A stretch of DNA of 64,000 nucleotides from contig PPNB01000004.1 of NCBI GenBank assembly GCA_003707115.1, forward strand, positions 310,001 to 374,000. The letters are read 5' to 3'. Position 1 is the first letter of the stretch. Every line of letters begins with the position of its first letter. Below, piece by piece: positions 14,334 through 64,000 of this stretch. Origin of the DNA: Tortispora ganteri. Lineage: Eukaryota. The notes beneath the pieces were generated by a model. The model made no database searches, was not told where the DNA came from, and worked only from the letters and a program-made list of their open reading frames with translations. The position numbers were made by a program, and so were the translations under genes.

Positions 14334-15320
14334 ATGGTAAGCATATTTGCTCAAAGAAAGCGGTTTTTTATAGGCGGTATCTAATTAATTTTGTTTCGCA
14401 TTGTATTTTCCTAGGATGCTTTCGGTAATGCGTCAATGAAGACCTAATCCTCTGAACACACTGTCGATCGTACTCCGCGGAATCTCCATTACCACTTCCC
14501 CGCTCAAGCGCAGTTTTTCGTGCAGTTTAACCTTCTGCTCGCACACTAATTATCTGCAATACTAACTTTATTAACGCAGGCTCGTAAATTCTTTGTCGGA
14601 GGAAACTTCAAATGCAATGGCTCTTTGGCCTCTATCAAGACCATAGTCGACGGTCTGAACCAAGCTACTCTCCCTAGCGATGTTGATGTCGTGATTGCTC
14701 CTCCTGCTCCTTATCTCCATTGGGCTAAGGAGCACGTCACTGGCAATATTGCGATTGCTGCGCAGAATATCTATGATAAAGAATCTGGCGCCTACACGGG
14801 TGAAATATCTGTAGGCCAAATTAAAGATGTTGGTGCGACATGGGTTATCCTCGGACACAGCGAACGTCGCACGCTCCTCTCTGAAAGCGACGAATTCGTT
14901 GCTTCTAAGACCAAGTTCGCTTTAGACAACGGTGTTTCCGTAATTTTGTGCATTGGCGAGACCAAGGAAGAGCGCGAAGCCGGTAAAACTCTTGAAGTTT
15001 GCAATCGCGAGCTCGACGCAGTAGTGGCAGTCGTTAAGGATTGGTCTAACATTGTAATTGCTTATGAACCAATCTGGGCCATTGGCACTGGTCTTGCTTC
15101 TACTCCTGAAGACGCTCAGGAGACACACAAAGGCATTCGTGAACACCTTGCTAAGGTTCTCTCTCCTGAACAGAGCGAGGCCATCCGCATCCTCTATGGC
15201 GGATCAGTGAATGGCAAAAACGCTACTTCTTTTAAGGATTGCCCCGATATTGACGGATTCCTTGTAGGTGGAGCCTCTTTGAAACCCGAGTTTGTTGATA
15301 TTATCAAATCCAGGTCTTAA
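14334..15320 (+). CDS. TPI1: Triosephosphate isomerase, 247 aa; exons 14334-14336 (ATG) and 14580-15320
   Basis: ATG|GTAAGC donor, TACTAAC branch point and GCAG acceptor. Splicing gives [12 protein letters not shown]. Also [24 protein letters not shown] and [10 protein letters not shown]. Confidence 0.97.
14337..14579 (+). other. Spliceosomal intron of TPI1 (243 nt, directly after ATG)
   Basis: GTAAGC...TACTAAC...CAG. Removal restores the conserved N-terminus in frame. Confidence 0.93.
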
Positions 15321-19244: not shown

Positions 19245-19943
19245 ATGTACCATCTCGCGAAGAGTGTGTACCTGAATTTGACGAAAACGGATGGTTAGTT
19301 GTTTTCTGAATGGGGGGTAGGGGTTTACGAATACTTAGCTAACAGCTAGAATACACAATATTGATATTAGGGCTCGACAATGCAGGAAAAACGGTAAGTG
19401 TTCTATAATCGGCATATACGCACTAGGCTAACTAACACGTAGACACTACTAGAACGTATTAAATCTGATTTTGGGAATAGCAGGATGCCGTCGGCTACTA
19501 TCCCTACTATTGGACAAAATGTGGCAAAGGTTACTGTGGACGGTATCAAATTAAAGCTGAGGGATGTGGGTGGCCAGGAAGCATTGCGGTCGATGTGGAT
19601 AAATCATTACTCTACATGTCACGGCATGGTTTTTGTTGTTGACTCTACTGATCAGGAAAGGATCCAAGAATGCATAAATGAGCTCATTTCTATAGCCGAT
19701 CATGAAGATCTAGAAGGCGTTCCAATTCTAATGCTGGCAAACAAGCAAGATCTCGACTCAAGTCTTGAAATCGAGCAGATAAAAGAGATTTTCAACCCCG
19801 TCGCTGCCCACCTCTCAGCGAGAGACTCAAGAGTTCTCCCGATCTCGGCCCTGACAGGCGAAGGCGTCACTGGTGCAGCTCAATGGATAGCCACTCGCGT
19901 TTTCAGAAACCGCGAATACAGACTTCCTAATAGAGTCAATTAA
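19245..19943 (+). CDS. ARL3: Arf-like GTPase Arl3/ARFRP1, 197 aa; exons 19245-19293, 19350-19393, 19443-19943
   Basis: Splicing out GTTAGT...GCTAAC...TAG (56 nt) and GTAAGT...ACTAAC...TAG (49 nt) gives MYHLAKSVYLNLTKTDEYTILILGLDNAGKTTLLERIK. Also PTIGQN, DVGGQ and NKQD. Confidence 0.92.
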
Positions 19944-20234
19944 TGGCATTTATTCTCCTTAACTTTCAGATCCTCTTCGTTTATTGTTTGTTTATAGCCT
20001 CTCGGCATTGTCCTTCTTAATACCGATAAACCGACCCGGGCCGATGCTAGCTTTGCCCGCTCCCAGTGCTCGGCAAAAAGTCTATGGTGTCCCACTTCCC
20101 CTTTTACTTACTATTTTTGCGGGGTATCTACTATTTAATATATTCAGCAGGTCTGAATCCTTATTCACGTTGTGTTTTTTGTGTTTGACTAAAAGACCGC
20201 TACTCGCTTTTAGAATTTCTATCACTCTTTGACA

Positions 20235-21449
20235 ATGTCGTTAGCCAGCTCCGTCAACGAACTTGTTCGGGATTGTGTCTCTTCAGACGGCGACAAGATC
20301 GCGGGATGCGCAGCCATGGTAGTTACCGTCGACAAAGTCCTTGCTTCTTCCTCTGCTGGAACTGCTGACACTGTTGGCTCAGAAAATAAACCTTTCACCG
20401 TTGATACGCCTGTGCGACTATTCTCCTGCTCTAAGCCGCTCACATGCTTTGCAGCGTTACAGCTTGTCGAACAAAGGAAACTTGAACTTCACACGCCTGC
20501 GAAGAAATATTTACCTGAAATCGGTGACATTCAGGTGCTGGAAGGCTTCGATAATTCAAGAAACCCGATATTACGTCCTCCTAAGACAGATATCACTTTG
20601 CACCATCTACTAACCCACACGTCTGGCTTCACTTACGGATTCAGCAACACTTATACTAACATGTACATGTTTGATGAAAAAGGAAAGTCTCGCTTCAAAA
20701 ATGGAACCAAGGCCTCTTATTGCACTCCACTTGCTGATGATCCAGGAAGCTCCTGGCAGTATGGCATCTCCATCGATTGGGTCGGTTTCATGATCGAACG
20801 TGTTACCGGTGAATCATTGGAAGTGTTCATCCGGGATAATATAACTGGCCCATTGGGTATGGACAGAACAACATTTTACCCCAATGGACAAATTCTAGCT
20901 GAGCAAGCTAAGCAGCATGTACGCAAACCTGACGGTTCTTTGTTTCCCCTTCCGCGGGACATAATTCCTGTGAAGCCTGAAGTGGTATCAGGTGGTGGAG
21001 GGTTGCTGAGCACAGTATCTGACTATATGAAGTTCTGCCGCATGCTTCTGAACAACGGAGTTGGGCCCAATGGGAAACGATTACTTGGAGAAACCCTGTT
21101 GAAGGAAGCTCTAAGCAATCAACTGCCATTGGGATGCTCTGCCATGGGTCTGGATGACATTGTGCCCGGTAAATACGTCAAGTTTACCAGACTGTCACCC
21201 GAATCGGTTAACCGATGGAGCTATCTGGGCATGTACAACCAAAACAAACTACTTACCGGTCGACCTGCTAAATCACTTTACTGGACAGGACTCCAAAATC
21301 TGTACTTCTGGGTCGATTTCGAAAATGGCCTTGCGGGAATGTGGGCTACTCAAATTCTTCCTATAAATGATCCAAAGTGTGCTAAAGCCTTTGAACGATT
21401 GGAAACAATGGTGTACAACAGCATCAAACAAACCAAATCTAATCTCTAA
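20235..21449 (+). CDS. Beta-lactamase-fold serine hydrolase/acyltransferase (class C, EstB/LovD-like)
   Basis: SxxK motif (SCSK), LLTHTSG, PGSSWQYG and GGGGLLST. The first ATG is at 20235. The protein ends SNL. Confidence 0.85.
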   Translation: MSLASSVNELVRDCVSSDGDKIAGCAAMVVTVDKVLASSSAGTADTVGSENKPFTVDTPVRLFSCSKPLTCFAALQLVEQRKLELHTPAKKYLPEIGDIQVLEGFDNSRNPILRPPKTDITLHHLLTHTSGFTYGFSNTYTNMYMFDEKGKSRFKNGTKASYCTPLADDPGSSWQYGISIDWVGFMIERVTGESLEVFIRDNITGPLGMDRTTFYPNGQILAEQAKQHVRKPDGSLFPLPRDIIPVKPEVVSGGGGLLSTVSDYMKFCRMLLNNGVGPNGKRLLGETLLKEALSNQLPLGCSAMGLDDIVPGKYVKFTRLSPESVNRWSYLGMYNQNKLLTGRPAKSLYWTGLQNLYFWVDFENGLAGMWATQILPINDPKCAKAFERLETMVYNSIKQTKSNL

Positions 21450-39245: not shown

Positions 39246-41534
39246 TCAATAATCTATGAGCTTCAACTTGCGTCCAATGTTCTTAGCCCTGTACTTTGCT
39301 GCTCCACTTCGCGGTGTAGTCGCACCCGACGGAGGCCTTGACCTTTCTGATTCGTGCGAACCATTGGTTATCGGTCCTAATCCTACACCCATGGCGGTAC
39401 TCATACTAGATGGTGTGCCATTCACTGGAGCCTTTGAAAACTCTTTCAGTAAGGCTTCCATTTCGCCCATATCAAAGTATCCGTAACCACCCATCACGTC
39501 ACCTGCTTCATCCTCTTCCTCTTCTTCGACAACTGCGGTAGTTTTAAGCTTGCGTCCAAGACGATCATCGGATACTTCACTGTTCAGGCCTGAAATAGAT
39601 GCCGCTTTAGCTCTAGAATTCTGTCTAAGAATATTGCGCATCTCAAGCAAATAGTTCTGTAACGTTTCAAGGAAACGTTTAGTTTGCCTATGTTTGGACG
39701 AAGCACAAATCGAAATCGAATTATTGGTCAAGATATAGCCAATTCCGAACCCATCAGGTGATGTTGGACCAAATCCAAACAGACGCAAAGAAGGGTTACC
39801 GCAATTCGAAGTCGACAAGATAGTATTGCCTAACTTATCCCATCCTTGATCTGCAAATATTGCAGGAAGCGGAGGCACGCTACCAGATGCCGCGCTATCT
39901 GTATCCCAACTAGATGAACCTTTATCGTCATCCAAAAACTCTCTCTGCCACATGCAAAGCAGTGCATACAAGTGCCTATCTTGACCAAGTCCTTGCGAGC
40001 ATTGCTTTGTTAGCTGTGAATGTCTATCGCATGCTCGTCTGAGCGATTCAATTTTGTCGATAGCTGGCGCGTCTTCACAAAATTTTCTTACAAATGCTAA
40101 ACATTCATCCGTTACCGTTCTTATAGCTTCTGTACGACCATGAAGGAAGTACTTGGTCATGGCTGGCTCGTAAGTGGACTCGCACCGTCCATACAGAGCG
40201 TAATAGGCGGCTTGGAAAGCCAACTGAACATATGCATCCGGAGAAAATCCTGAATTCTTTATAAAGTTTGTTCCATAAGCTTTGAATTCCAGAGTTTCAA
40301 CCTCCGTCTGATGGATGAGATCGGACAATCTGGACTCTGCAAAACGGAGAGCAATGGACAACTCAGGGACCAAAGTCCACTCTAACCTTCGGGGTACGAT
40401 TGAGATAAATGGTTTTGAGTTTCTCAAAGACACCGGGTCAGGACTTTGTGAAGGCCAGATTGACGGAGAAGAGCCAGTAATACTTTTAGCATATCTCAAG
40501 ATTGAATCTGTAAAGATATCTGAAACAAACCTCAGCACAGTGTGGCCGTCTACACCGGTGTGCTCAAAATTAACACCTGCTGATCCATTTTTGGTGACAA
40601 TGATCTGTAGTTTATCGTACCAGCGGTTAGTACATGATCCAACCTGAATGCCTTTTTCAACCGATGAGGTTCCGCATAAAATATTACGACTCAAATCTGC
40701 CAAGGTTTCGGGGCTGACATGATCTAAGCATAGCATAAATAGAGCGCTGTCAATGATACTGAGAATTTCTCTATTATTGGCATCATCACCATTAGCCAAA
40801 ACCTCTCTCAGATTAGCCCAGTCCCTGCGGTTCTCGGTAGTCAGTACACCGACAGCTCGTTTAGCAGCTTCTGTAATAGATATATCTTGTGCATCTGAAA
40901 CAATTGTTTCAAGATTTCTGCTCAGTTCAGCTTCCGAGATGATAATGTCACTGTTTTCATCGAGAACGTCGAACCAATAGAATTGCGAACGAGCCACCAC
41001 CACAATGTGGCGCGATGTAGTATCAGTTTGCATAATGCAGCAATCCTGGTTAGGAATGCGAGAGGTACCAAATAGTCGAGTATATTGATACATACACAAA
41101 GGCTTTCCACGAACGTTATCGTAGGGAAGTTCTTCGCGGCGAAGGGCGCGGATGAAGTTAAGCGAGGATATCACTAGCGATGCTGCACGATTTACCTGAG
41201 AGCCCGAAGCAGAAGGGCTAGGATCTTCCTCCAAAAGAAAAAATGGATTTAAGTTCAAAACCACAGGATTGTCGTAGTTTAGGTAAGAATCGTACCAGAA
41301 CTGTTCGATATACGAGCTGCGGTCCTTTGAGTACTCCTTTAGCATATTATTTAGTCTAGGACCTTCGTTTGCAAGGAATTCTGCTGTAGCAGCCTTAGTG
41401 CGTTGATGTTCAGCATAAGTCTGAAGAGGACGAACGGCATCCAGGTATTTCTTGCAAGTTTCCTCTAGATCAGGAATAGGCAGCTTAGATAGCAAATGTT
41501 GCTTGGAGAAAGTGACGGAACCGTTTACTGTCAT
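39246..41534 (-). CDS. YAT1: Carnitine O-acetyltransferase, Yat1-like
   Basis: KLPIPDLEETC, SYIEQFW, VVLNLNPFFLLE, NRWYDKLQ, catalytic FEHTGVDGHTVLR, SPDAYVQ and STSNCGNP. The first ATG is at 41534. Confidence 0.92.
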   Translation of the reverse strand: MTVNGSVTFSKQHLLSKLPIPDLEETCKKYLDAVRPLQTYAEHQRTKAATAEFLANEGPRLNNMLKEYSKDRSSYIEQFWYDSYLNYDNPVVLNLNPFFLLEEDPSPSASGSQVNRAASLVISSLNFIRALRREELPYDNVRGKPLCMYQYTRLFGTSRIPNQDCCIMQTDTTSRHIVVVARSQFYWFDVLDENSDIIISEAELSRNLETIVSDAQDISITEAAKRAVGVLTTENRRDWANLREVLANGDDANNREILSIIDSALFMLCLDHVSPETLADLSRNILCGTSSVEKGIQVGSCTNRWYDKLQIIVTKNGSAGVNFEHTGVDGHTVLRFVSDIFTDSILRYAKSITGSSPSIWPSQSPDPVSLRNSKPFISIVPRRLEWTLVPELSIALRFAESRLSDLIHQTEVETLEFKAYGTNFIKNSGFSPDAYVQLAFQAAYYALYGRCESTYEPAMTKYFLHGRTEAIRTVTDECLAFVRKFCEDAPAIDKIESLRRACDRHSQLTKQCSQGLGQDRHLYALLCMWQREFLDDDKGSSSWDTDSAASGSVPPLPAIFADQGWDKLGNTILSTSNCGNPSLRLFGFGPTSPDGFGIGYILTNNSISICASSKHRQTKRFLETLQNYLLEMRNILRQNSRAKAASISGLNSEVSDDRLGRKLKTTAVVEEEEEDEAGDVMGGYGYFDMGEMEALLKEFSKAPVNGTPSSMSTAMGVGLGPITNGSHESERSRPPSGATTPRSGAAKYRAKNIGRKLKLIDY

Positions 41535-63271: not shown

Positions 63272-63875
63272 TTAACAGCACCCATTACCAGAACCTTGTT
63301 GAACGTTCTGTCCACGTAGATTGACATTAGGCTTAGCAGATCCACCTCCAGAAACAGAGTCAGATCCTATAGCATCTTTGATTTGACGAGCCATAGTCAA
63401 AAATGCCTGCTCAACATTAGTTGCATCCTTAGCAGATGTCTCTAAGAATGGAATTCCTAGACTATCAGCGAACTCTTTGGCAACAGTATATTCAACAACT
63501 TTCTGGTCCTTCAAATCAGATTTGTTTCCAACAAGAAGCTTGACAACGCTTTCGGCTGCATAACGATCTATCTCTTGAAGCCATTGCTTGACGTTATTGA
63601 AGCTCTCTTGATCAGTAACATCGTACACTACAATAATGCCGTGCGCTCCGCGGTAGTAGCTCGACGTAATAGTGCGGAATCGCTCCTGACCTGCAGTGTC
63701 CCAAATTTGTAACTTCACAGTCTTGCCTTCGAGGTCGATAGTGCGAATCTTGAAGTCAACACCAATAGTCGATATATACGAGTCCGTGTAGGTGTCATCG
63801 GCAAATCGCAATAATAGGCAAGATTTACCGACACCTGAGTCTCCAATGAGCAGAAGCTTAAACAGAAAGTCGTAG
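63272..63875 (-). CDS. YPT1: Rab1 GTPase, last exon (first exon outside window)
   Basis: After TACTAAC (63900-63894) and TAG (63878-63876), the exon reads C-TAC-GAC..., giving [18 protein letters not shown]. Also [25 protein letters not shown] and C-terminal CC. Confidence 0.97.
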
Positions 63876-64000
63876 CTATAGATTGAAATTTCGGTTAGTA
63901 TTCAGTACCATATAGGTTTGCATATATGCAATTTTACTCTGATTGTTGTTAGTATGCTGCAGTGTTGTGAGTGCTATCAGTGGACTATAGATGTATATAT

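Follow-up and report, generated by a model that had tools for sequence, protein, structure and literature searches.

A candidate [D3,4] spliceosomal twin intron at the 5' end of YPT1 in a Tortispora-like yeast

The first papers on spliceosomal twin introns (stwintrons) reportedly date from 2013 and 2015 and appeared in Fungal Genetics and Biology. The types listed as demonstrated in the accessible part of a Lipomyces study are [D1,2], [D2,3], [D5,6] and [A2,3], to which a reticulon-like gene of Lipomyces adds [D4,5], [D6,7] and [D7,8] (PMC7138796). This is the one gene to carry budding-yeast stwintrons in the accessible papers (PMC7138796). Stwintrons are rare and, for the most part, described from filamentous fungi; the accessible part of a 2025 article holds the authors' statement that [D1,2] accounts for almost all known cases (PMC12403724). 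The main texts of the accessible stwintron literature contain neither a [D3,4] type nor a ypt1 stwintron. The terms ypt, GTPase, rab and GTP-binding are not mentioned in PMC5587772, PMC6616335 and PMC8469720, nor ypt1 and GTPase in PMC5639578 and PMC9024468, nor GTP-binding in PMC9024468; among the matches listed, no paper combines ypt1 with stwintron.

Here we compare with these systems the 5' intervening sequence of a YPT1 gene on the minus strand of a 64,000-nt stretch of DNA (the window). In our reading this sequence is probably a donor-split spliceosomal twin intron of the [D3,4] type.

Layout of the intervening sequence and its local intron grammar

Exon 2 of YPT1 opens C TAC GAC TTT CTG (xxC-Y-D-F) and adjoins the outer acceptor (Table 1). 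From 63874 to 63272 (minus strand) it translates into a 200-residue Ypt1/Rab1 body ending in GCC and a stop codon. The best protein matches are the Ypt1 proteins of Yarrowia and Sugiyamaella (84% identity), and the matches carry Ras-family Pfam domains. Judged by its sequence, the yeast is Tortispora-like and belongs to an early-branching budding-yeast lineage. A Ypt1 of Tortispora caseinolytica was not found in a protein search (110-350 aa; best identity 87%), though the proteome of this species is in the collection, which hints at an absent or faulty YPT1 gene model there. Elsewhere in the window, a carnitine acetyltransferase (39246-41534, minus strand) shares 94% identity with the T. caseinolytica protein, the next matches being at about 60%. 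At 63769-63798, contigs from the same organism break with a 30-nt overlap, and one 54-nt contig enters adapter-like letters, an assembly artefact of the sequencing run that says nothing about the locus. Contigs of this organism and of three relatives show that the YPT1 locus extends past 64000.

Because exon 2 starts in codon position 3, an exon 1 with an ATG is needed. The minus strand of 63876-64000 contains no ATG with a usable donor, so exon 1 lies beyond the window, which bears out the sequence-only reading in placing the deciding sequence there; every element listed in that reading also lies at the minus-strand position it was given. Two ways of keeping exon 1 inside the window were rejected. 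Both ATGs in 63901-63938 would read through into the TAG at 63878-63876, and an exon 1 spliced from GTACTG would leave a 33-nt intron and the wrong frame.

Table 1. Features of the YPT1 5' region and the verified introns of the window. A slash marks a split or splice boundary.
Feature	Position	Strand	Details
Inner intron (proposed), visible 3' part	63939..64000	-	62 nt; donor beyond window
Inner branch box TACTAAC	63948..63954	-	branch A at 63949; 6 nt before CAG
Spacer between inner TACTAAC and CAG		-	AACAAT
Inner acceptor CAG	63939..63941	-	first AG past inner branch box
AGT, proposed 3' half of split outer donor	63936..63938	-	+4..+6 of GTN/AGT
Single base A, then GTAAAA	63938, then 63937-63932	-	
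Outer intron, part downstream of inner intron	63876..63938	-	63 nt
Outer branch box TACTAAC	63894..63900	-	branch A at 63895
Outer acceptor TAG	63876..63878	-	15-nt spacer from outer TACTAAC
YPT1 exon 2	63272..63875	-	last base of split codon, then coding sequence and stop 63274-63272
TPI1 intron	14337-14579	+	243 nt; GTAAGC; TACTAAC-N10-CAG
ARL-like GTPase intron 1	19294-19349	+	56 nt; GTTAGT; GCTAAC-N3-TAG
ARL-like GTPase intron 2	19394-19442	+	49 nt; GTAAGT; AACTAAC-N3-TAG
SCD6/LSm14-like intron	34758-34572	-	187 nt; GTAAGT; CACTAAC-N8-TAG

On the minus strand the inner TACTAAC lies 54 nt upstream of the outer one. The intervening sequence thus holds a complete 3' module of its own, TACTAAC-N6-CAG, with the branch element and acceptor that a [D] stwintron requires of its inner intron. 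The external branch box and acceptor that such an intron also requires are present too, and they would delimit an outer intron of workable size (66 nt, including a GTN beyond the window). The sequence right after the inner CAG is AGTAAAATT, so that AGT, the 3' part of an outer donor, directly follows the inner acceptor; the GTN part would lie beyond 64000. There is little sign of a tandem duplication of both modules, as few flanking bases match outside the heptamer.

As a comparison set we took the four other introns of the window that were verified by reading-frame continuity. G occupies +5 in all four donors, and +4 to +6 read AGT or AGC in each, so that the AGT after CAG matches the second half of donors in this genome and GTAAAA, one base further on, is a poor fit as one. 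The spacers between branch box and acceptor measure 10, 3, 3 and 8 nt; a 6-nt inner spacer is therefore ordinary, and the inner module looks like a normal 3' end in this genome. Since introns of 49 and 56 nt are among the verified ones, an outer intron of 66 nt would be workable. The genes themselves show some peculiarities. Exon 1 of TPI1 (14334-14579, plus strand) is the start codon only, with GTAAGC directly after ATG; the ARL-like small GTPase gene (19245-19990, plus strand) has two very short introns with a gap of just 3 nt between branch box and acceptor; and the SCD6/LSm14-like intron separates the LSm-like part from the FDF-containing part.

Homologous ypt1 loci and the proposed order of removal

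Metagenome contigs were scanned with a pattern that fixed TACTAAC, a gap of 1-30 nt, AG, one base and exon-2 codons from YD[YF], leaving the upstream sequence unconstrained. Seven fungal ypt1 loci (L001-L007) were recovered, and the same nested layout was seen in every one of them; a looser pattern scanned in genome contigs and in viral contigs returned 0 loci each. Four of the loci (L001, L002, L003 and L005) are mutually close and the other three (L004, L006 and L007) are distinct, so the sequences fall into at least four groups. The HGICVVYDVTDMDSF signature shared by named Pezizomycotina Ypt1 proteins is encoded in L004 and L007; the remaining five contigs stop short of it.

In all seven loci an 11-nt homologous exon 1, ATG-NNN-CCN-GA, precedes GTN. 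Directly behind it lies an inner intron, 61-100 nt long and complete, with its own donor (GTGAGT, GTAAGT or GTACGT, that is, GT[AG][AC]GT), a branch element [AG]CTGAC 19-22 nt before its end, and a YAG acceptor. Past this YAG, each locus reads AGT[AT]..., then an outer TACTAAC, YAG and A-TAC-GAC. As long as the inner intron is present, the exon-1 boundary lacks G at +5 (GTCGTG, GTCGTA, GTGGTA or GTAGTA); excision changes it to GTCAGT, GTGAGT or GTAAGT and leaves an outer intron of 90-123 nt. The outer donor GTNAGT is thus formed only by inner excision, which makes the seven loci [D3,4] stwintrons in type, and from this arrangement we infer a two-step order of removal. In L003 and L005, YAGAGT recurs within the outer intron, about 41 nt past the inner acceptor.

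The window aligns with this architecture. The position and phase of the intron (following base 2 of the codon that precedes Y-D-Y/F) are identical in the seven loci and the window, and ...TACTAAC-N6-CAG/AGTAAAA... of the window aligns with ...CTGAC-N13-17-YAG/AGT[AT]... of the loci. By analogy, exon 1 of this YPT1 would supply the first two bases of a split codon, probably GA, which with the C of exon 2 makes GAC (Asp) ahead of YDF. Beyond the window, GTR would come next and, immediately after it, an ordinary donor (GTAAGT, for example). The spliceosome would pair the nearest sites first and remove the inner intron from its own donor to CAG 63939. This excision would join GTR to AGTAAAA and create a consensus donor GTRAGT that was absent before; the intermediate would read GTR/AGTAAAATTG. 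A second ordinary reaction, using the box at 63900-63894 and the TAG at 63876, would then remove the 66-nt outer intron and join exon 1 to C-TAC-GAC. Other split points were tried in turn (G+AGTAAA for [D1,2], GT+AGTA for [D2,3] and GTAA+AGT for [D4,5]) and rejected as poor donors; only GTN+AGT fits.

The sequence-only reading had left two models standing, a single-nucleotide exon and a split donor. The split donor gains from the seven homologous loci and from the match of AGT to positions +4 to +6 of local donors, and the single-nucleotide exon loses ground on both its donor, which lacks G at +5, and the homologues.

Other explanations for the upstream module

The alternative that survives best, which we nevertheless consider unlikely, is a single ordinary intron ending at TAG 63876, with the upstream TACTAAC-N6-CAG as a spare module. 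Such a module could be an alternative 3' site giving a stop-containing, unproductive and possibly regulatory mRNA, a tolerated decoy, or a relic left after loss of the inner donor. Two branch boxes by themselves are weak evidence of nesting, because TACTAAC occurs in the window at chance frequency (9 sites against 7.14 expected; 30 of 100 shuffles reach 9, so the motif is not enriched) and a second close pair falls within a coding ORF. That pair, two perfect TACTAAC boxes 46 nt apart (20608-20660, plus strand) within a 404-aa beta-lactamase-family ORF (20235-21449), serves as a chance control for two close boxes. A branch box with a YAG also turns up in 2.5% of 400,000 random 100-nt sequences of YPT1 intron base composition, and early or distal branch-site use is reported for S. 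pombe and C. neoformans in the accessible part of a preprint (bioRxiv 10.1101/224170). A single intron would nevertheless leave to chance the AGT directly after CAG, for which about 1.2% is expected from composition, and would leave unexplained the YAG/AGT at the same intron in 7/7 homologous loci.

The consequences of using the inner acceptor also weigh against a spare module. One upstream donor spliced to CAG 63939 would read GA/A GTA AAA ... TGA, with a premature stop in frame. We considered whether the inner module might be a structurally masked decoy, for which predicted folds give no support: the fold of 63870-64000 is no more stable than shuffles (z = +0.68) and leaves CAG 63939 unmasked, and that of 63876-63938 is no more stable than shuffles either (z = -0.72). 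With a premature stop and an unmasked site, a perfect decoy would be costly in YPT1 unless a second splice followed.

Related yeasts bear on the same question. Three related genomes (about 95% identical, about 5% diverged) align to the window up to 63997. The differences listed for them within 63876-63960 are at 63881, 63889, 63892, 63917 and 63942, together with an insertion behind 63913 in one of the three and, shared by all three, a 1-nt deletion at 63932 within a run of A; among these, none falls in the two TACTAAC boxes, CAG, AGT or TAG. Given the low divergence and the partial listing of differences, this retention is compatible with the nested arrangement and not probative. The 30 nt beyond 63997 in the three relatives contain no donor-like GTxxGT and no conserved ATG, so the proposed inner intron would be at least about 90 nt long. 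More distant budding yeasts favour a single intron. Gene models that read through the same intron (23 codons in Yarrowia, 54 in Sugiyamaella and 26 in another yeast) lack a convincing YAG-AGT over the final 69-162 nt of the introns, as judged by eye from the protein letters. Hence budding yeasts do not share the nested arrangement as a rule, and in this yeast it may reflect convergence or a relic state.

It is much less probable, to the point of being far-fetched, that the upstream module is a pure chance motif never used by the spliceosome. Many introns were examined in the sequence-only reading, and the relatives are too close to reveal selection, both of which leave some room for chance. 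The full module TACTAAC-N6-CAG-AGT is not chance-like, however. With AGT added, the branch box and YAG occur in 0.035% (3.5e-4) of the same 400,000 random 100-nt sequences; ACTAAC-N1-20-YAG-AGT occurs once in 128 kb (the 64-kb window, both strands), at the YPT1 site; and the YPT1 inner box is the only one of 29 ACTAAC sites at which the first downstream AG lies directly before AGT. A perfect TACTAAC with a YAG at normal distance is also the pattern of the verified introns here, and the homologous architecture recurs in 7/7 loci.

The least credible reading has exon 1 end one base into a codon, followed by a first intron that ends at CAG 63939, a 1-nt exon A (63938) and a 62-nt intron from GTAAAA to TAG 63876: it does give an in-frame xAC codon, and one-nucleotide exons are reported in the accessible parts of papers on Arabidopsis (PMC4674806) and on Fusarium CYP621A genes (PMC12940212), but its donor has no G at +5, a state found in 0/4 verified donors, the 1-nt deletion in the relatives turns it into GTAAAT, again without G at +5, and in the seven homologous loci it is impossible because the sequence after ATGAATCCAG begins AG, not GT, and it cannot yield their known N-terminus MNPEYDY. 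A recursive splice site with a zero-nucleotide exon was rejected as well, since it needs YAG/GTRAGT and the sequence reads CAG/AGTAAA.

Fungal Ypt1 gene models and comparison with known systems

Ypt1 gene models from other fungi appear to carry traces of a complex first intron. Transcript-like, intron-free entries (P0025, P0079 and P0110) read ...MNPEYDYLFK in translations that run from the 5' UTR into the ORF, which indicates that such fungi remove the complex sequence in full. The MNPEYDY start is absent from all 20 full-length named Pezizomycotina Ypt1 models inspected (among P0016-P0112), a set of 90% cluster representatives taken from a ranked list rather than a survey, with the partial entry P0079 excluded. 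The N-termini of these 20 models are aberrant, either unrelated or read-through. In Curvularia, MNPEWYV... fits read-through of GA-GTG-GTACGT, and in Cudoniella, Aureobasidium and Pseudomassariella, MNPEV... fits an intron from the outer donor to the inner acceptor (GA/A GTA ...). Gene predictors thus appear to stumble at the first intron of ypt1, and misannotation appears to be widespread; a complex intron outside the models of the predictors could produce such N-terminal errors.

Tentatively, and with more doubt than confidence, we propose that the first intron of ypt1/YPT1 is a [D3,4] stwintron that dates back to the common ancestor of budding yeasts and filamentous ascomycetes and was retained in the Tortispora-like lineage. 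If so, no older or more widely conserved nested spliceosomal intron would be known; it would reside in a Rab GTPase gene that is essential, and may be one cause of the aberrant N-termini in fungal Ypt1 models. At an ancient position common to a Tortispora-like yeast and diverse filamentous ascomycetes, a donor interrupted between its third and fourth nucleotides would add a new stwintron type, and an essential, highly conserved gene would be seen to house a nested intron. It would also offer a tractable case in which to weigh inheritance over hundreds of millions of years against repeated origin by donor duplication.

Among described systems, the [D] stwintrons of the Lipomyces reticulon-like gene share most with the YPT1 proposal, as far as the accessible text goes (PMC7138796). 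Both belong to the budding-yeast lineage and occupy the most 5' intron. In Lipomyces, as proposed for YPT1, an inner U2 intron lies in or at the outer donor, removal runs from the inside out by two standard reactions, and the donors nearly abut, as expected from a small donor duplication (PMC7138796). The Lipomyces cases differ in gene, yeast order and split point, which in YPT1 would fall between donor nucleotides 3 and 4 (PMC7138796). They are also confirmed by RT-PCR (PMC7138796), whereas the YPT1 case is a proposal from sequence, with its 5' half outside the window.

The [D1,2], [D2,3] (bioDA) and [D5,6] (rtnA) stwintrons of Pezizomycotina, as described in the accessible parts of PMC5639578, PMC6616335 and PMC12403724, are, like the YPT1 proposal, cases in which a complete internal intron interrupts an external donor. 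The intron is old and conserved in position, and splice sites pair by intron definition (PMC5639578, PMC6616335, PMC12403724). These accessible texts differ from the present case in naming no [D3,4] type, no ypt1 and no GTPase gene (PMC5639578, PMC6616335, PMC12403724).

Recursive splicing, described for BOT1 of C. neoformans and for animals in the accessible part of bioRxiv 10.1101/224170, resembles the YPT1 proposal in its two reactions and its regenerated 5' splice site. A recursive site, YAG/GTRAGT, carries the full donor downstream (bioRxiv 10.1101/224170), whereas CAG/AGT of YPT1 needs three donor bases from upstream, so the first cut in YPT1 would have to start from a donor lying 3 nt into the intron. 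Finally, two acceptor modules with one base between them can, on paper, be read as in genes with single-nucleotide exons (accessible parts of PMC4674806 and PMC12940212). Such exons need a working donor after the single base; GTAAAA fits this role poorly, and the homologues exclude the reading for YPT1.
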